From an uncultured bacterium (GTDB taxonomy: Bacteria > Babelota > Babeliae > Babelales > Vermiphilaceae), in the NCBI GenBank assembly GCA_963707655.1, contig OY970172.1, positions 320,001-384,000 of the forward strand: a DNA stretch of 64,000 nucleotides, written 5' to 3'. The translations under genes and the position numbers were made by a program. Below are positions 4,311 to 59,176 of this stretch, one piece after another. Position 1 is the first letter of the stretch; each line of letters opens with the position of its first letter. Under the pieces are notes generated by a model. It had not been told where the DNA came from. It saw only the letters and a program-made list of their open reading frames with translations, and searched no databases.

Positions 4311-4387
4311 GCGCCCGTAGCTCAGATGGATAGAGCGATAGATTCCTAATCTGTAGGCCATGGGTTCGAATCCCGTCGGGCGCACCA
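4311..4387 (+). tRNA. tRNA-Arg (anticodon CCT)
   Basis: Cloverleaf: acceptor gcgcccg/cgggcgc, anticodon loop ttcctaa, T-loop ttcgaat, encoded CCA. Confidence 0.97.
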
Positions 4388-52668: not shown

Positions 52669-52712
52669 AGATTATAAAGTATAATGTATCTGCAAAAGGA
52701 GAGTAGAGTAGT

Positions 52713-53210
52713 ATGATAATTCTGGGCATCGATCCGGGATTTCAGGTCACCGGTTATGGTATTGTTAAAAAAGAGGGAAGCAAGTCTTACTTAATCGACT
52801 GCGGTTACCTTAAAATGAGTTCAACAAAAACATTATCATATCGCATAGGCATATTTTATAATTTTTTCACGAATAAAATTAAAGAGGCAAGTGTCACTAA
52901 TATTGCTCTTGAAACCCCGTTCTTGGGAAAAAACGCCCAAAACTTTCTCAAATTAGGGTATCTGCGTGGCATATTATATCTTCTTGCCGAGCAACATCAG
53001 CTGCCATTGCATGAGTTTTCACCGACAGAAGTAAAATCATCATTAACCGGTTTCGGTGGCGCAAGCAAAGAACAAGTTGCACGCGTTATTTTACGGTTAT
53101 TTCCTCAATTACAAGCTCCCGATAAGGCTGACGTTACCGATGCAATTGCCGTAACCTTGTGCGGCTTATGGAAAAGCAACAGCAACATATTGCTCAATAA
53201 GATGAAATAA
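52713..53210 (+). CDS. ruvC: Holliday junction resolvase RuvC
   Basis: ILGIDPG, E, TGFGGASKEQV, DVTDAIAV. Confidence 0.95.
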   Translation: MIILGIDPGFQVTGYGIVKKEGSKSYLIDCGYLKMSSTKTLSYRIGIFYNFFTNKIKEASVTNIALETPFLGKNAQNFLKLGYLRGILYLLAEQHQLPLHEFSPTEVKSSLTGFGGASKEQVARVILRLFPQLQAPDKADVTDAIAVTLCGLWKSNSNILLNKMK

Positions 53211-53380
53211 TGAGTGATAAACAAACACTTTTTTAAAAATGAAAGTAATGTCTTGCTTTTGCTCCGGTGCTTTATTTACCTTGTAGGCATGAAGGGTCAC
53301 GGGGAAGGGACGTCTTAATGCCAGGTCTCATCATTATGGTGATGGGGCCAACCGCGCTATTAAAGGAAGGGAATGTGCTC

Positions 53381-53851
53381 ATGACAAAATTGGGCTTCAC
53401 CTATCCATCGTTTACTAGAAGCAATTTTATCTATATTCATGATCAAAGAATCAGTTCTCATGAAGAAATCATTGCGCTGCATGATATATTGCTTACTCCC
53501 GGTTTTCATTGTTTAAAAGCTAAGAATATGGCATCGGGCAGAGTTGTTGTTGATGTTTTTCTTATGTCATTAAATTGTTTTCACACTATCGGTTGCTTAA
53601 CTATGGAAAAACATCAGTTACCCTGCAATATACAAAATATATATCAACAGTTAGAGCAGGGGGACTATCTATCTCAAGGGGCGGATGGGATAGAGAATTT
53701 TCTTGTTGATGCTTTTTACTGCGATTTTCTTTTCATTGAAATGCAGCCCATGCTCATGAGTAGCCGTTGGTTCCCCGTACTACAACAAAAAATGATTGAT
53801 TTAAAACTCGATCAGGCAATTCCTATTATTTATCTGATATATGAATATTAA
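53381..53851 (+). CDS. Hypothetical protein
   Basis: ORF with purine-rich RBS before ATG 53381. Confidence 0.65.
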   Translation: MTKLGFTYPSFTRSNFIYIHDQRISSHEEIIALHDILLTPGFHCLKAKNMASGRVVVDVFLMSLNCFHTIGCLTMEKHQLPCNIQNIYQQLEQGDYLSQGADGIENFLVDAFYCDFLFIEMQPMLMSSRWFPVLQQKMIDLKLDQAIPIIYLIYEY

Positions 53852-54651: not shown

Positions 54652-54679
54652 AGAGCCGATAAGAGCTATTATGTTAAAA
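54652..54679 (+). other. dif-like XerC/D site
   Basis: agagccgataa-gagcta-ttatgttaaaa (11-6-11); right arm 1 nt from E. coli TTATGTTAAAT. Confidence 0.7.
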
Positions 54680-55762
54680 GAGACTGCTGCTGCACAATAA
54701 CAAATCTCCAATAAACAAGGGAGAAAAACTATGTTTCTTACCGACATACTCTTTTTTTATTTCATATGTCTTTACATTATAACTCAAGATAACAAAAAGG
54801 TTTTCATCATAGTCAACAAAATAAATTTTCCCCTCATGATAGCGTGGCAATAATGGGGCCAAAGACTCAGTCAGCCGCTCTGTTGTATCTCCCGCCACAA
54901 AACAATACGGAATTTTAAAAGAAAATGCTTTTTCATAGCGCCACACCTCTGCTCTCTTTTCAATATAATAAGCATCAAACATGCACGCTGTAGCGTCATA
55001 ATTTATCACAAATCCAGAATTCTCCGATGTCATTGATAATGATACCGGAGAATGAATTTCATCAAAACCCAATAAGAGAGATTGTTGCTGCAATGTGCCC
55101 TGTGCTCTTGATTCATTTTTTTTACCTAACAAGCGTGCTACTCTCTCATCAAAAGTGTCTAGCGCATTAAAATTATTCTCTTCAGAAAGCGGTATAGATG
55201 GATATGTGCTGTGCATTAACACACAACCACTTTCATTATTATTGTGTTTAATATAATAAAGAGAATCAGTAATTTTTTGTGGATATATTAAATCATAATG
55301 CTCATCCTGCACCACAGCCTCAAGCTCGCCGGTAATAGTAAGATGAAAAATCGCATAATGCCCATATTGTTTAGCGCATACATACAGTGAGTTTCTATCT
55401 ATCCATGAAAATGAAAGAATATCATAAATAGGAGAATCTATATCTATACTCATTACCGAGCGCTTATCAAAGAACTTTACCCGTATTCTGCCCTGATCCA
55501 AAAAACTAATTCCTTCTTGATTTGGTACCAATGTCAAAAGCGTGGGATTAAGATGACTGGGCAGCCCTTTAAAAAAATTATTATTGTGTACATCCCATAC
55601 CCATACTTCAAGACGTTTATCAATCTTTTGATGCACCAAATAGACCATGGGCGCATCGGGCTTGCCTATCCATAGACAAGGATACAGATAAGGACCATCA
55701 AAACTGAAACAGGAAGAAGACGACGACAATAAAAGCATGCAAAACAGAAAAAAGAGCTTCAT
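54674..55762 (-). CDS. Exported hypothetical protein (beta-rich, possibly propeller)
   Basis: 362-aa ORF with signal peptide. Confidence 0.7.
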   Translation of the reverse strand: MKLFFLFCMLLLSSSSSCFSFDGPYLYPCLWIGKPDAPMVYLVHQKIDKRLEVWVWDVHNNNFFKGLPSHLNPTLLTLVPNQEGISFLDQGRIRVKFFDKRSVMSIDIDSPIYDILSFSWIDRNSLYVCAKQYGHYAIFHLTITGELEAVVQDEHYDLIYPQKITDSLYYIKHNNNESGCVLMHSTYPSIPLSEENNFNALDTFDERVARLLGKKNESRAQGTLQQQSLLLGFDEIHSPVSLSMTSENSGFVINYDATACMFDAYYIEKRAEVWRYEKAFSFKIPYCFVAGDTTERLTESLAPLLPRYHEGKIYFVDYDENLFVILSYNVKTYEIKKEYVGKKHSFSPLFIGDLLLCSSSLF

Positions 55763-55855
55763 TGGTAATCCTTTTCTTAATCCTCATCGTAGATAGCCTT
55801 GTTATACAGTAACAAAAAGCGAGGCAAAAAAGTAAAATTTATTTGAAAAACCCGC

Positions 55856-55965
55856 AAAAAAAATCCACCGCACTGACCGAAATCAATGCGATGGAAAAAA
55901 GGAGAGTAGTAATGAAGCCTAATTGACAGAATAAATACTTGTGGGTTACCCCCAAGACTTATACT
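55856..55965 (-). ncRNA. Candidate small RNA (~110 nt)
   Basis: Own promoter, GUAA-tetraloop hairpin, anti-SD single strand, terminator with G-U pairs and U8 tail. Confidence 0.65.
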
Positions 55966-55971
55966 GGAATA

Positions 55972-56000
55972 ATAGTATTAATAAATAGTTCAAATGTCAA
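55972..56000 (-). promoter_or_regulatory. sigma70 promoter for the candidate sRNA
   Basis: TTGACA (56000-55995)-N17-TACTAT (55977-55972). Confidence 0.7.
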
Positions 56001-56127
56001 ATTTAAAAATTATTAAATTGATAGAAATATCAAATAAAATAGCTAATCATTCTCTTATAGAATAGCTTATTTTTTATGTCTGTCAATAGATAACGCTTTA
56101 AGAATTGGCTTACATAAAGGCATCATT

Positions 56128-57207
56128 TCAATGTGAAATGATGAGTCGCTGAAAATTAAGCGATTCAAGCTTCTGGAGCAAGAAGCTGTTACTTGTGGGG
56201 CAGGTAAATATAAGTTGACAATCAAGATTTTTCAAGACATCTATGATTTGATCAGATCGCTCTTGATCCAAGTCAGTTATGAAATCATCGAGTAACAATA
56301 TGGGCCGCACTGCTTTTTTAGCTATGAGATTTTTAATTTGAGCTATTTTCAGCAGCAAAATGATAAGTTTTTGCTGGCCACGCGAAGCAAAGGCGCGAGA
56401 GCGCTGGTCCCTAAATTGAATCATAAAATCATCAAGATGTGCCCCAAATAGCGATCGACCGAGCTGTAGCTCATTTTGATATAAAAGTGGCTGATCGGCC
56501 CAAAACTGCTCAAAATTGGTTGCAGCGCTTTCTTTTTTTTCCTGGTACGCAAAGGAGATTGAAATATCTTGGGGAAAATGGGCAGCCAACAACTCTTTAA
56601 CCCCCGTATCCAGTTCCGCCAGACCTTCTTTACGCTTTGTGCGAATAGCGTATGAAATATCCCATAATTCCTTGCTCCAAAATTCATAATATTCTTGCGA
56701 ATTATTATGGCGAAACAATGCGTTTCTGCTATCAACGGTATAACGGAGCTTTTTTACCAGAAGAGCAAAATCAGGATCATACAACATCATAACCTGGTCG
56801 AGGAATACCCTACGCTGATCCGGCCCCTCTTTAATCAATGCCAGATCATCTTCGGTTAACGTAACAATGCGATAATAATCCATCAGCTCTTTATAGGAGA
56901 CAATGCTTTTCTGATCAACTTTAACCACTCTTTTTTTACCGGAGAAACCTATTTTAATCTCATGTTCCTGGTAATCCTGGCTCTTGAGAGCAATTTTAAC
57001 GAAGAATGAATTTTGATCAAAATAGGAAAGTTCTTGCGGGCTATGGGTTCTAAAAGATCGCAAATAACAAGCATAATGCAAAGCCTCGAGCACTGATGTT
57101 TTGCCCGTACCGTTGATACCCTCAAGCAAGATAATGTGCTTATCAAAGGTAAGGTTAAGCTCTTTGAAGCATCTAAAATTCTTTAGATGAATACCGGTAA
57201 TATGCAT
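56128..57207 (-). CDS. recF: DNA replication/repair protein RecF
   Basis: NFRC, GINGTGKTSVLEA, ASRGQQK, LLLDD. Confidence 0.95.
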   Translation of the reverse strand: MHITGIHLKNFRCFKELNLTFDKHIILLEGINGTGKTSVLEALHYACYLRSFRTHSPQELSYFDQNSFFVKIALKSQDYQEHEIKIGFSGKKRVVKVDQKSIVSYKELMDYYRIVTLTEDDLALIKEGPDQRRVFLDQVMMLYDPDFALLVKKLRYTVDSRNALFRHNNSQEYYEFWSKELWDISYAIRTKRKEGLAELDTGVKELLAAHFPQDISISFAYQEKKESAATNFEQFWADQPLLYQNELQLGRSLFGAHLDDFMIQFRDQRSRAFASRGQQKLIILLLKIAQIKNLIAKKAVRPILLLDDFITDLDQERSDQIIDVLKNLDCQLIFTCPTSNSFLLQKLESLNFQRLIISH

Positions 57208-58331
57208 TAGTTACTCAAGCTTGGGGAAACCGGCATTACCAAATAGAGCAATTCATGATCAGCGGCGTGAGATTCAAAGATAATCGGTTTTGCTGATGTC
57301 TGAAGATAAAATTTTACTTTATCTTCAGAAAAAGATTGCAGACCGCTTAATAAATAAGGAGCATAAAAACGAATATCTAAATCGGTTCCATCAAAATCAG
57401 GCAACGGCACTTCTTCTTTTAATTTTCCTACTTCCTGATTTTGCATAGAAACTTTTAATAAACGGGAGGTAAAACCAAAATTGGTAGCAATAAATTGCCC
57501 CGATAATAAGCAGGCTGAGCGGCGCAAGGTCTTGACCAGTTGCTGACGATCCACTGTTGCGGCTTTGAAACCATCTTTTTTCAAAATTGCCGAATATTGT
57601 GGAAATTGGTCCACTAATATTTTAGTAAAGAAATTAAATGACTCACCGGAAAACACTAATTGGTTGCCACAAATACCAACAAAAATTTCTTTATCGCCAG
57701 AACCTTCGACAATCTTTTTTACTTCAAAAATAGCGCGGCGCGGGATGAGCCAGGTGCGCGGTTGTGTTAACGTGTACTGCGCTGTTGAAACTTGCGCCAA
57801 ACAATGACCGTCGGTAGTTGTCATGGTAAGTCCGGTTTGGCCAATTTCTAAAAAAAGCCCGTTCAAAGCCGGATTAGCGTTATTTTGTGGAATAAGGAAC
57901 GCTACTTTATTGAGAAGATTCAATACAAAAGAAGATGCCATATGCATGAGGTTTTCAATGCGTTCGGGAAAAGGAGGAAATTCACTGGGGTCTTTGATAT
58001 TAAGCGCAATAGCTACCGATCCTGATTTAAGAAGCAGTTGCGCTTCTTCTACAACAAATTCAATTTCCCCTTCAAATTCTTTTACAATATCAAAGATGCG
58101 CTTTCCCGATACTAAAAATGAGCACTCTTGCATAATGTCTGCATGCTGCAATAAATAACTTGATTGCAAGCTTACTTCAAGATCGGTACTTTTTAAAACC
58201 AATTCTTTGTGGCCGAGTTGAAAAAGAATAGAATTGGTCGCATTAATAGTTGTTCGCTTTGTGCAAATTGGTTGCATGGCGGAAAGAATGGCCATTAGCG
58301 GTTTTTGATCAACAGTAAAATTATGTTTCAT
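57207..58331 (-). CDS. dnaN: DNA polymerase III beta clamp
   Basis: STDLE, TTDGHCLA, FPQY, YLVMPV. Confidence 0.94.
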   Translation of the reverse strand: MKHNFTVDQKPLMAILSAMQPICTKRTTINATNSILFQLGHKELVLKSTDLEVSLQSSYLLQHADIMQECSFLVSGKRIFDIVKEFEGEIEFVVEEAQLLLKSGSVAIALNIKDPSEFPPFPERIENLMHMASSFVLNLLNKVAFLIPQNNANPALNGLFLEIGQTGLTMTTTDGHCLAQVSTAQYTLTQPRTWLIPRRAIFEVKKIVEGSGDKEIFVGICGNQLVFSGESFNFFTKILVDQFPQYSAILKKDGFKAATVDRQQLVKTLRRSACLLSGQFIATNFGFTSRLLKVSMQNQEVGKLKEEVPLPDFDGTDLDIRFYAPYLLSGLQSFSEDKVKFYLQTSAKPIIFESHAADHELLYLVMPVSPSLSN

Positions 58332-58555
58332 AAAATCCTTATTTTTCAATATTTTATTGCATAATTAAGATATGAATAAGTATACCGCGCTCCGGTAAAA
58401 AGAAAAAGATAGCCTTTTCTTTTATATAAAGACACTATTTGCATTAGTATCAAACCTTTTTTTAAAGACTATTTCTCTTAAATGTGTTGAAAATTTAATG
58501 ATTAACTTGATACTATTAAATTAATATTTGAAATGCTTTAAATTAAGGAAGAAAT

Positions 58556-59176
58556 ATGAAAATCATTCTGAGACATGCATTTACTTTGCTTGTTGTGGTC
58601 TTTCATTGTGCGCAATCAGCTGAGCAAAAAGAAAAACAAACTATGTTCAGTGCTGTTGCAACGGGAGATCTTCCTGCCGTAAAAGTATTGATAGAACGGG
58701 GAATTGATCTCAATCAACCAATCCTTGAAGGGGCAACTGCATTAATGTTTGCCGTGATGAATAATCATCTTGAAACAGCACAGCTACTCATAGCGAATGG
58801 TGCAAATGTCAATGTGCAAAACGATGCTGGATCTACCGCATTGATGATGGCCACCGCGAGAGCCAATTTTGACATAACGCAGTTGCTTGTAAAGAATGGC
58901 GCAAATCTCGATTTACAAGATGAGCGAGGATGGACCGCATTAATGATAGCCGTATACAATGAAGAATTTAAACTAGCGCAGCTACTCGTAAAGAACGGCG
59001 CAAATAGACGCCTCAAAAATAAGGATGGCGATACAGCACTTATTATAGCGATAAAGAATCGTAATGACCCAGCGTACATTGCTATGTTGGGATCTAAAGA
59101 TGAAATATCAGAGTATGAACAAGCGAGAAACAATGGCACTATTCCCGCATTGATCAATACTCTCAGAAATAGATAA
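58556..59176 (+). CDS. Secreted ankyrin-repeat protein
   Basis: Signal peptide; four G(A/S/W/D)TAL repeats. Confidence 0.92.
   Translation: MKIILRHAFTLLVVVFHCAQSAEQKEKQTMFSAVATGDLPAVKVLIERGIDLNQPILEGATALMFAVMNNHLETAQLLIANGANVNVQNDAGSTALMMATARANFDITQLLVKNGANLDLQDERGWTALMIAVYNEEFKLAQLLVKNGANRRLKNKDGDTALIIAIKNRNDPAYIAMLGSKDEISEYEQARNNGTIPALINTLRNR

Follow-up and report, generated by a model that had tools for sequence, protein, structure and literature searches.

A predicted small RNA family of Dependentiae with an invariant segment complementary to translation-initiation regions

Yfr1 of cyanobacteria is a short, phylum-wide small RNA (sRNA) with an ultraconserved unpaired sequence of about 11 nt between helices, and it reportedly acts on the initiation regions of outer-membrane protein mRNAs, Hfq dependence not being central. 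RsaE/RoxS of Firmicutes and AbcR of alpha-proteobacteria use C-rich seeds that pair with the Shine–Dalgarno sequences of many mRNAs; these seeds are conserved over wide taxa, since regulation of multiple targets freezes the seed. Chlamydia, which lives only inside cells, has a reduced genome and lacks Hfq, uses the sRNA IhtA to block translation through base pairs at and near the start codon of a target mRNA. The 3' external transcribed spacer of an E. coli tRNA operon works as a sponge for Hfq-dependent sRNAs. Dependentiae are widespread, almost uncultured obligate intracellular parasites of protists, a few of which grow in amoebae or flagellates. Our literature search found no paper describing regulatory RNAs of Dependentiae or the element analysed here, and neither 'sRNA' nor 'noncoding RNA' occurred in the text of the Dependentiae papers found.

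We analysed a window of 64,000 nucleotides (the whole stretch of DNA introduced above) from a genome of the Dependentiae (TM6/Babeliales). The reading towards which we lean is that a locus on its minus strand encodes an independently transcribed, trans-acting sRNA of about 110 nt, which would pair with translation-initiation regions and repress translation. Within the literature searched, this would be the first candidate post-transcriptional regulator for Dependentiae, and its invariant seed of 20–27 nt would rank among the most strictly conserved bacterial sRNA seeds. The element resembles Yfr1 in its phylum-wide conservation and in having an ultraconserved unpaired stretch flanked by helices, but it differs in sequence and phylum, its conserved stretch is 20–27 nt long against about 11 nt in Yfr1, its seed reaches over the start codon and the second codon, and the Yfr1 family of Rfam was not even weakly scored. 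A widely conserved, pyrimidine-rich anti-Shine–Dalgarno seed is shared with RsaE/RoxS and AbcR; whereas their seeds are short, C-rich and frequently duplicated, and mostly sit in hairpin loops, the seed here is one long linear CU-rich stretch 5' of the terminator, in an sRNA for which Rfam gave no match. Like IhtA, the sRNA belongs to an intracellular bacterium and is predicted to pair at start codons, but it is unrelated to IhtA in sequence and phylum, and no single or conserved target comparable to hctA, the main target of IhtA, was found for it. The predicted pairing of a stable-RNA spacer with a trans-acting sRNA recalls the E. coli sponge, although the spacer here lies between 16S and 23S rRNA, beside boxA, and is not a tRNA spacer.

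Anatomy and distribution of the sRNA gene

Gene anatomy, strand, conservation, covariation, accessibility of the seed and enrichment of complementarity were obtained from sequence. The minus-strand promoter, hairpin, unpaired CU-rich segment and terminator with U8 described by the sequence-only reading were all present at 56000–55856, between recF and a gene for a secreted protein (Table 1), and the predicted RNA measures about 110 nt. The earlier claim that the locus holds no ORF was borne out for ORFs of at least 40 aa on both strands of 55763–56066. So was the assignment of the terminator to the minus strand by its G–U pairs, since frequent U–G pairs become C–A mismatches on the opposite strand.

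Table 1. Coordinates of the sRNA locus, its neighbours and the ruvC start region in the window
Feature	Position	Strand	Remarks
-35 box TTGACA	56000-55995	minus	sequence read directly
-10 box TACTAT	55977-55972	minus	17-nt spacer from -35 box; sigma-70-type promoter 55972..56000
sRNA transcription start	near 55965	minus	predicted from the promoter
Variable 5' domain	55927..55966	minus	from the fold; hairpin in the source genome
5' hairpin core CUUGGGG-GUAA-CCCACAAG	55956-55938	minus	sequence read and fold
Invariant single-stranded seed UUAGGCUUCAUUACUACUCUCCUUUUUUCC	55893..55922	minus	complement of GGAAAAAAGGAGAGUAGUAAUGAAGCCUAA
27-mer GGCUUCAUUACUACUCUCCUUUUUUCC	55919-55893	minus	within the unpaired CU-rich segment
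Intrinsic terminator	55856..55895	minus	14-bp stem 55895-55864, 6 G-C, then U8
Terminator loop		minus	4 nt, UUCG-type
U8 (T8) run	55863-55856	minus	directly after the terminator stem
recF	56128..57207	minus	Pfam SMC_N/AAA_23; conserved upstream same-strand neighbour of the sRNA
dnaN	57207-58349		upstream of recF
ruvC translation-initiation region	52694..52715	plus	ATG 52713; CDS 52713-53210; Pfam RuvC
Downstream gene, 362-aa secreted protein	54674..55762	minus	N-terminal signal, YLYP motif; possible cis or trans target

The 121-nt RNA folded with an energy of -38.4 kcal/mol against -22.0 ± 3.0 kcal/mol in shuffled sequences (z = -5.5; none of 200 shuffles equalled it). The seed was open in the predicted fold of the source-genome sRNA, and its core had a median unpaired probability of 0.85 in 102 modelled homologues. 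Neither promoter-like sites (24 against 22.6 in shuffles) nor terminator-like sites (7 against 5.5) were more frequent in the region than in shuffles, and consensus matches by themselves are therefore no proof of an sRNA gene; the gene is taken as real because of conservation and covariation across relatives.

With up to 3 mismatches, the 27-mer was found in 192 of the phylum's 261 genomes (155 of the 189 high-quality ones), while the reversed 27-mer gave no match in the same scan of 261 genomes. Complete genomes of cultured isolates also carry the 27-mer. The 3' module was recovered by blastn in 36 of 41 related genomes, the seed being identical in all 20 blastn loci fetched from relatives, and a covariance model found diverged copies in four of five representatives of families lacking the 27-mer. 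In one group of genomes (f8) the seed was reduced to GCUCCUUUCUCCUUUUUUCC. An alignment of 126 distinct homologues was built from loci of the exact-match scan, so that seed invariance within it holds by construction. It strongly supported the terminator helix, as the covariation check across relatives proposed earlier had called for: 99.3% of cells were paired, double-sided changes occurred in 11 of 13 pairs, and none of 500 shuffles reached the observed level of covariation. The 5' domain, by contrast with the invariant seed, differed in sequence and length in every genus, although another hairpin usually stood there.

A RecF-like gene was located upstream of the sRNA in 15 of the 17 loci of relatives tested, and copies lay nearly always just downstream of recF, on the same strand. 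This constant neighbourhood would also suit a reading in which there is no separate gene, the hairpin and U-run being the recF terminator and the conserved stretch the recF 3' UTR. We regard it as very improbable. Of 125 distinct loci, 121 had a near-consensus -35 box (TTGACA or TTGACT) between recF and the seed, 35–150 nt upstream of the latter; on the opposite strand of these stretches, 4 of the 125 had one. One genome contained a tandem array of three units, and promoter, seed and terminator were present in all of them. In G001 there were two copies, on different contigs, and another hairpin (56143–56121) overlaps the stop codon of recF.

Searching the whole window against Rfam 15 returned only a tRNA (4311–4384) above the gathering threshold. 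In a permissive scan of 55500–56400 Ref84 scored best on the element, but its 23.3 bits (E = 2.1) fell short of the threshold of 52 and came from the terminator and the U-rich tail. The view of the locus as an unannotated, independent sRNA gene thus came through the Rfam check with no family matched. Several other identities were rejected: coding on the sense strand (no ORF is present, the 5' part is of variable length, and the helix shows RNA-type covariation); an antisense small protein or type I toxin, given that the ORFs beginning at the conserved antisense ATG vary in length at random (127 distinct loci, 4 aa in 37); SRP RNA, the real copy of which scored 56.3 bits elsewhere in the genome; and, in view of the CUCCUUU core, a 16S 3'-end fragment or missing anti-Shine–Dalgarno sequence, the 16S rRNA having the canonical end GGAUCACCUCCUUUCG. 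An own promoter, an intrinsic terminator and the lack of coding capacity, the general marks of a trans-encoded sRNA, were found on sequence and comparative evidence, and the element is a predicted sRNA family, previously undescribed, common to most Dependentiae (order Babeliales).

Complementarity of the seed to start sites

The complement of the seed reads as an A-rich tract, GGAG as the Shine–Dalgarno sequence, a 7-nt spacer, AUG and AAG. The proposal that the seed is the complement of a ribosome-binding site plus start agrees with the start-site profile of the genome itself (506 starts), which the seed complement follows. When near-perfect complements were sought in relatives (21-mer, up to 3 mismatches), all nine that were fetched were real starts of unrelated genes, which fits the suggestion of many targets, and in three genomes a few starts each showed extended seed matches, mostly those of signal-peptide proteins.

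We infer transcription, action in trans, repression and the identity of the targets, and the sRNA probably switches off the translation of certain genes. Its own sigma-70-type promoter would drive transcription up to the intrinsic terminator, giving an RNA in which a 5' hairpin domain that evolves fast is followed by 20–30 nt of invariant, unpaired CU-rich sequence and by the terminator hairpin. The invariant segment would base-pair in trans with purine-rich starts (A-tract, GGAG, spacer, AUG, AAG), and the 30S binding site would be occluded and translation repressed. The target set would be partly lineage-specific, with the ruvC mRNA leader as the most recurrent predicted mRNA partner and the GAGUAGUA box of the rRNA spacer as a second predicted partner.

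The sequence-only reading had singled out ruvC, and the match it reported is real: AAAAGGAGAGTAG (52694–52706), 6 nt before the ATG, is a 13-nt perfect complement to CUACUCUCCUUUU of the seed. The resulting duplex of -20.9 kcal/mol ranked 19th of 709 start regions in the source genome, among which only ruvC had a 13-nt perfect match. Duplexes of -20 kcal/mol or stronger were predicted for ruvC in 10 of 30 genomes, compared with 3.7% of the 709 own starts and 7.7% of 65 neighbouring starts. Across metagenomic loci, the 73 ruvC starts had a mean duplex energy of -16.3 kcal/mol against -12.7 for 420 starts from the same loci; 22% against 4% contained a perfect match of at least 10 nt, and 15% against 1.4% had GTAGT or TAGTA in the spacer. 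Of 400 shuffled 19-nt cores, only 3 equalled the real core in their match to the ruvC starts. However, about two thirds of ruvC starts are ordinary, without any notable match, and duplex energy is confounded by Shine–Dalgarno strength, being inflated at any strong, G-rich Shine–Dalgarno sequence; the gene after ruvC scored equal to ruvC because of such a sequence. The ruvC start of one genome (G031), AAAAAAAGGAGAA, has a 12-nt match to the f8 variant of the seed, but it is a generic strong start, and few lineages are involved. As the complementarity is enriched but far from universal, ruvC is a plausible recurrent target, neither proven nor sole.

Searches beyond ruvC gave the following. The source genome contained three 13-mer matches and one 15-mer, a 13-mer not being rare by itself. 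Nothing comparable to the antisense of the sRNA itself was found there by blastn-short or by a genome-wide duplex scan in 50-nt windows, and a register-locked scan of 25,937 candidate starts gave no long complement beyond it. The best two non-self sites (759960 and 154169) were rejected as targets, as they opened ORFs of only 28 and 44 aa. We also ranked orthogroups from the source genome and parts of three others (1.2 Mb of G010, 0.7 Mb of G029 and 0.1 Mb of G025), with gene and start calls made by crude rules; 517 reciprocal-best groups were obtained, of which 303 had at least three members, and among these 303, ranked across three genomes, no family showed consistently strong pairing. The ranking did not include ruvC, the G029 copy lying outside the stretch covered. 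At generic starts the real seed beat shuffled seeds weakly (30 of 400 shuffles equalled it), and the related genomes are non-independent, so that p-values are overstated. No single universal target accounts for the invariance of the seed, the predicted targets all being less strictly conserved than the seed itself.

The rRNA spacer and proteins as possible partners

The second predicted partner, a conserved GAGUAGUA box, adjoins boxA in the 16S–23S spacer. In the rRNA operon of the source genome the best wobble-free duplex with the seed fell in this spacer, at -19.1 kcal/mol, beyond the 0.1% tail (-17.0 kcal/mol) of 3000 random 40-nt windows. When 23 spacers were aligned, 15, from several families, had a box of the AGTAGT/GAGUAGU type at the same position 5' of boxA. 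The mean longest perfect match between the 19-nt core and the spacers was 7.48, compared with 5.41 ± 0.43 for shuffled cores, none of 400 reaching the real value; the 23S trailer of the source genome had no complementary TACTAC, which leaves the box with no obvious pairing partner in cis; and both lineages without the UACUAC seed (G096 and G040) were also without the box. These observations speak for a reading in which the rRNA precursor is the primary partner. The seed would then pair with GAGUAGUA(AU) just 5' of boxA and affect antitermination or processing of the 23S precursor; alternatively, the abundant spacer would titrate the sRNA, the activity of which would track rRNA synthesis. We nevertheless hold this reading to be unlikely. 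The box spans only 7–11 of the roughly 27 invariant seed nucleotides and was missing in 8 of the 23 spacers, at least 6 of them from genomes with a canonical sRNA. It may serve a function of its own near boxA, and the match may be a coincidence with a low-complexity GUA repeat. Moreover, the spacers are homologous, so that the 15 boxes count in effect as a single conserved motif rather than as independent events; several classes of partner were searched, of which the rRNA operon was one.

A combined reading, in which the seed is a hub pairing with both the spacer box and mRNA starts such as that of ruvC, would also seem to us improbable. If true, one sRNA would couple ribosome synthesis to the translation of selected genes across the phylum, either by acting in trans on rRNA antitermination or processing, or with the rRNA spacer serving as its sponge. 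To our knowledge, a role for a trans-acting RNA in rRNA antitermination or processing is known for eukaryotic and archaeal guide RNAs, not for bacterial RNAs.

Hfq-dependent sRNAs carry a U-rich stretch before the terminator hairpin and a poly-U tail of 7 or more. The corresponding 3' feature was present here, with CCUUUUUUCC directly 5' of the terminator stem and U8 after it. Hfq (PF17209), ProQ and CsrA were not found in the source genome, which is 88.6% complete. The RNA might instead bind another protein, the pyrimidine-rich invariant segment being the recognition site and its complementarity to start sites secondary; the single RRM-domain protein, ribosomal protein S1 or a cold-shock protein would be candidates, and the RNA would titrate or deliver the protein. 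The invariance over about 27 nt, which exceeds what any predicted pairing partner explains, is in line with this, as are the result for Hfq, ProQ and CsrA and the presence of one RRM_1 protein in the genome, with an RRM gene directly downstream of the sRNA in one relative (L009). This support is circumstantial, however: the RRM gene was adjacent in only 1 of 19 loci, and we know of no binding motif for the RRM, S1 or cold-shock candidates. Nor would a protein site lead one to expect the precise order of anti-Shine–Dalgarno, spacer and anti-AUG seen in the segment, or the finding that near-perfect complements of the segment are real gene starts. We see only a slim chance that protein binding is its main role.

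The gene downstream of the sRNA

The 362-aa protein encoded downstream had no Pfam match. The alternative offered by the sequence-only reading was an attenuator leader of this gene. In a cis-acting leader of this kind, the read-through RNA would bear the anti-Shine–Dalgarno segment about 90–140 nt upstream of the gene start, and the segment would fold back on the start as a translational lock, or termination would be the regulated step. Part of the alternative stood, as among 41 loci with enough flank 29 were followed within about 500 nt by the start of an ORF on the same strand, which in 22 of the 29 encoded a homologue of the 362-aa protein. The starts of the homologues had a mean seed duplex of -15.6 kcal/mol compared with a background of -12.7 kcal/mol, one of them, GGAAAAAAGGAG, with a 12-nt perfect match, and the stretch from the terminator to the downstream gene had none of the promoter-like sites listed for the minus strand. 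The alternative was, however, weakened by the unrelated and opposite-strand neighbours, the seed being invariant even though the downstream gene may encode an S8 peptidase, a NUDIX protein or an RRM protein, or be a DOT1-like gene on the opposite strand, and by the genome with three complete units in series and no gene in between. In addition, the 5' domain, where a sensor site would be expected, was not conserved, no alternative antiterminator pairing was apparent, the seed was predicted to be open and not paired with the terminator, and the terminator is long and then followed by U8. We consider it doubtful that the RNA is a leader of the downstream gene. Assignment as a riboswitch, T-box or attenuator leader was rejected on the unconserved 5' domain, the varying downstream gene and the tandem units.

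For the trans-acting sRNA that we favour, the seed and its predicted partners (ruvC leader, rRNA spacer box and secreted-protein starts) would suit heterologous reporter tests. The position of the sRNA is fixed beside recF, a few kilobases from ruvC. Together, the 27-mer and the covariance model make a compact marker of Dependentiae contigs in metagenomes. Several records bearing the 27-mer were labelled 'Pseudomonadota', 'Proteobacteria', 'Epsilonproteobacteria' or 'uncultured bacterium'.

The minus-strand RNA gene

The element lies on the minus strand as a promoter, TTGACA-N17-TACTAT (56000-55972), a GNRA-type hairpin, an open segment, a terminator stem and U8. All these parts were present as the sequence-only reading had described them, except that its terminator stem of 12 bp proved to have 14 pairs. 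That reading had also found the element to be without an ORF, and none of at least 40 aa was detected on either strand from 55763 to 56066.

Features of the sRNA gene (window positions)
Feature	Position	Strand	Basis
-35 box, TTGACA	56000-55995	-	read in sequence
-10 box, TACTAT, 17 nt after -35	55977-55972	-	read in sequence
transcription start	near 55965	-	inferred
hairpin, core CUUGGGG-GUAA-CCCACAAG	55956-55938	-	read in sequence
open stretch with UUAGGCUUCAUUACUACUCUCCUUUUUUCC	55922-55893	-	unpaired in fold
terminator stem, 14 pairs	55895-55864	-	terminator-like site scan
U8 after stem	55863-55856	-	read in sequence

Consensus scans found 24 promoter-like and 7 terminator-like sites, and since such sites were equally common in shuffled sequence (22.6 and 5.5, respectively) these scans alone were no evidence. 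The predicted fold of the sRNA, with the CU-rich stretch unpaired, had an energy of -38.4 kcal/mol, compared with -22.0 ± 3.0 kcal/mol for shuffled sequences, none of which (0/200) was as stable. Covariation across relatives, a check the sequence-only reading had suggested, was measured on the 13-pair terminator helix of 126 distinct homologues: 99.3% of cells were paired, both partners had changed in 11 of the 13 pairs (157 cells), and none of 500 column shuffles reached any of five measures. When the partner was shifted by 1-3 columns, pairing fell to 23-53%. Many pairs of the helix were U-G with the U in the 5' arm, equivalent to C-A mismatches on the opposite strand, which bears out the claim that the terminator is valid only on the minus strand. 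The invariance of the seed in this alignment exists by construction, because the loci were taken from an exact-match scan; its unbiased basis is the blastn relatives, the fetched loci and the phylum-wide scan described below.

Of 125 distinct loci, 121 had a TTGACA or TTGACT box at a distance of 35-150 nt upstream from the seed, compared with 4 when that stretch was read on the opposite strand; the nearest box lay at a median distance of 75 nt. A stricter rule (TTGACA-like, 16-18 nt, TAnnnT) was satisfied in 102 of 124 loci; it overestimated RNA lengths because it tended to choose distal boxes. The seed core had a median unpaired probability of 0.85 in the RNAs modelled from these 102 loci. 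The 5' domain varied in sequence and length in every locus compared. One relative (G035; L150, G035:C10, 719-1140) carried three tandem units directly behind recF, every unit having a promoter, seed and terminator of its own, and two of these paralogues had the extended seed CUCCUUUCUCCUUUUUU; another genome, G001, had two copies on separate contigs. It is extremely improbable that the element is a mere terminator of recF. On this comparative evidence we consider the element, with high confidence, to be a real, conserved, non-coding RNA gene, confirming the earlier observation.

A coding sequence on either strand was ruled out, as ORFs from the conserved ATG of the opposite strand had random lengths in 127 distinct loci (4 aa in 37, 3 aa in 4). 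SRP RNA, found elsewhere in the genome, was likewise excluded, as was a 16S 3'-end fragment, the 16S 3' end being canonical. No Rfam family matched the sRNA at the gathering threshold, and a permissive scan gave chance-level matches only (e.g. Ref84, 23.3 bits vs 52). The part of the literature covered by our search held no paper on Dependentiae small RNAs. Hfq, CsrA and ProQ domains were not found in the source genome (88.6% complete), which encodes one RRM_1 protein; that the molecule is primarily a protein-binding RNA seems quite improbable. The sRNA founds a new family within a class of regulator already known, unusual in its long, strictly conserved seed and its phylum-wide, syntenic distribution.

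Distribution and genomic neighbourhood

Matches to the locus were obtained by blastn in 36 of 41 genomes, comprising 40 relatives and the source genome (1.09 Mb, single contig, 41.3% G+C). Only the 3' 70 nt, i.e. seed and terminator, were conserved, with 80-97% identity even across families, and TAGGCTTCATTACTACTCTCCTTTTTTCC was identical in all 20 fetched loci. An exact scan of species-representative genomes with the invariant 27-mer of the seed returned at least 119 stretches. The named records among the matches listed were Dependentiae, TM6, Babeliales, Vermiphilus or 'Candidatus Dependentiae bacterium Noda2021', and the others were unclassified MAGs or MAGs deposited as Pseudomonadota, Proteobacteria or Epsilonproteobacteria (e.g. 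the loci L037, L040, L043 and L068). These last labels are probably wrong if the sRNA occurs in Dependentiae only.

In a phylum sample of 261 genomes, all from one order, the 27-mer was present with up to 3 mismatches in 192 genomes, including 155 of the 189 of high quality, while the reversed 27-mer gave no matches. It was absent from f8 (0/3), f17 (0/7) and f19 (0/6), from most of f12 (6/35) and from part of f7 (4/12), and we searched one representative genome per family of these five with a covariance model derived from 126 distinct copies. Clear homologues were detected in f7, f12 and f19, with an insertion-bearing seed (CUCCUUUCUCCUUUUUU) or small changes, and a diverged homologue, GGCGUCUUUAAUAAGCUCCUUUCUCCUUUUUUCC, in f8; the hairpin-only matches in f17 were not counted as a homologue. 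The deep core of the seed is CUCCUUU, and CUUCAUUACUACUCUCC was kept in nearly all copies. The f8 sRNA region (L401, G096:C12, 1440-1570) contains many N's, and therefore the 5' part of its seed is not confidently readable in that assembly.

The gene order is dnaN, recF, sRNA, and of 17 relatives' loci examined, 15 had a RecF-like gene upstream on the same strand, like the window. Divergent from dnaN is a 206-aa protein (58556-59176, plus strand) consisting almost entirely of ankyrin repeats; such proteins are characteristic of symbionts and parasites that live inside eukaryotes. The gene downstream of the sRNA differs among loci. A same-strand ORF followed within ~500 nt in 29 of 41 loci with enough flank, and 22 of these 29 were homologous to the window's 362-aa secreted protein (YLYPVG-type N-terminal motif), whose gene the sRNA might precede as a cis-acting leader, a reading we regard as unlikely. 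This secreted protein (54674-55762, minus strand; ORFs in L003-L270) has ~350-430 aa, no Pfam family, a conserved E-F/Y-L-Y-P-V-G motif right behind the signal peptide and 'YQK' ~20 residues further on. Neighbours seen in single relatives were a protein with a eukaryote-like DOT1 histone-methyltransferase domain (L018, 1870-2535, minus strand) and a 96-aa RRM-domain protein (L009, 1783-2073, plus strand).

The seed and its candidate targets

The complement of the seed, GGAAAAAAGGAGAGUAGUAAUGAAGCCUAA, has the layout of a start-site profile built from 506 predicted starts of the source genome: an A-rich stretch at -17 to -12, GGAG near -11 to -8, 5-8 nt of spacer, ATG, and A at +4 and +5. Neither the GUAGUA spacer nor the G at +6, nor the CC behind it, belongs to the consensus, which gives the seed a specificity beyond that of a generic anti-Shine-Dalgarno sequence. 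The 21-mer AAGGAGAGTAGTAATGAAGCC matched about ten non-sRNA sites in 41 genomes with up to 3 mismatches, compared with none for the reversed control. All nine near-complement sites fetched were starts of real, mutually unrelated ORFs (90-493 aa), most of them with signal peptides. GAGUAG or GUAGUA occurred in the spacer of 9-14 starts per genome (about 1%) in three genomes examined, mostly of lineage-specific secreted proteins, and no orthogroup recurred among them.

Besides the sRNA's own antisense, no long complement of the seed was found by blastn-short, by a genome-wide duplex scan or by testing 25,937 candidate starts in a locked register, and the best non-self sites opened ORFs of only 28 and 44 aa. 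Ranking of 303 orthogroups with at least 3 members (source genome plus 1.2 Mb from G010, 0.7 Mb from G029 and 0.1 Mb from G025, ORFs by a crude rule) revealed none with consistently strong seed pairing.

The perfect 13-nt complement in the ruvC leader, on which the proposal of a repressor had partly rested, was present at 52694-52706, ahead of the ATG at 52713. No other of the 709 start regions of the source genome matched the seed perfectly over 13 nt, and ruvC ranked 19th by duplex energy (-20.9 kcal/mol). We compared ruvC starts, fixed by the conserved N-terminus M-I-I-L-G-I-D-P-G, from 30 genomes with own-genome and neighbouring starts and, as an independent set, 73 distinct start regions from 80 metagenomic ruvC loci with 420 other starts of the same loci.

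Seed pairing at ruvC and other starts (related genomes are included though not independent; duplex energy favours any strong G-rich Shine-Dalgarno sequence)
Starts	n	Mean energy (kcal/mol)	Duplex <= -20	Perfect match	GTAGT/TAGTA in spacer
ruvC, genomes	30	-16.4	10/30	10/30 (>=9 nt)	about 7/30
own-genome starts	709	-11.8	3.7%	6.6% (>=9 nt)	0.8%
neighbouring starts	65	-13.4	7.7%		
ruvC, metagenomic	73	-16.3	21%	22% (>=10 nt)	15%
other starts, same loci	420	-12.7	6.2%	4.0% (>=10 nt)	1.4%

The metagenomic ruvC starts differed from the other starts in a rank test (p = 2.5e-10) and in the spacer motif (Fisher odds ratio 12, p = 2e-6). Shuffled versions of the 19-nt non-homopolymer core equalled the real core in 3 of 400 cases on ruvC starts and in 30 of 400 on the 420 background starts. 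Most ruvC starts in both sets showed no special complementarity. We conclude that ruvC does not account for the seed being invariant; it is a plausible recurrent target, a proposal that we make tentatively from the pairing statistics. ruvC and the sRNA were on one contig in 28 of 35 genomes in which both were located, 0.2-17 kb apart, on opposite strands and convergent; the other 7 are fragmented assemblies.

In many genomes and metagenomic loci ruvC is followed, on its own strand, by a gene (53267-53851, plus strand; L151-L270) for a protein of ~150-170 aa that has no Pfam family; within it a motif of the type P-F/L-S/T-E-x-D/E-I-L-x-L-Q-D/E-x-F-L is conserved. The start of this gene, often ATGAAGC, scores -16.6 because of its strong G-rich Shine-Dalgarno sequence (GGAGG).

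The best-supported mechanism, towards which we lean by a little, is that the sRNA would act in trans as an anti-start-site repressor, with a regulon that may be partly lineage-specific and often include ruvC.

The 16S-23S rRNA spacer

When wobble pairs were disallowed, the best seed site in the source rRNA operon was GAAAAAAGUAUGAGUAGUAGUAAU in the 16S-23S spacer (G000:C1:79690-79740, outside the window), with -19.1 kcal/mol; random 40-nt windows gave a mean of -6.3 ± 2.5 kcal/mol and a 0.1% tail at -17.0 kcal/mol. All 23 spacers aligned from relatives (L372-L394) contained, behind an AUAAAAA tract, a strongly conserved UUGUGWUCUUUGAAAUAUUUGUA, in which we take UGUGWUCUUUGAAA to be boxA-like. 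A (G)AGUAGU(A/G) box was located 10-25 nt upstream of this motif in 15 of the 23, from several families. Averaged over the spacers, the longest perfect match to the 19-nt core was 7.48, compared with 5.41 ± 0.43 for shuffled cores (0/400 reached it), and the number of spacers with a match of at least 7 nt was reached by 4 of 400. No TACTAC for cis pairing with the box was found in the 23S trailer of the source genome. Two lineages without the UACUAC seed, G096 (f8) and G040 (f17), also had no box, which was absent too from at least 6 genomes with a canonical sRNA. Pairing of the seed with this box may be considered a lead, not a finding, and it appears improbable that the sRNA acts primarily on the rRNA precursor. 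A 23S processing stem, UUGUAGAUUAAGUAUC with GAUACUUAAUCUAC, was visible in the source genome.
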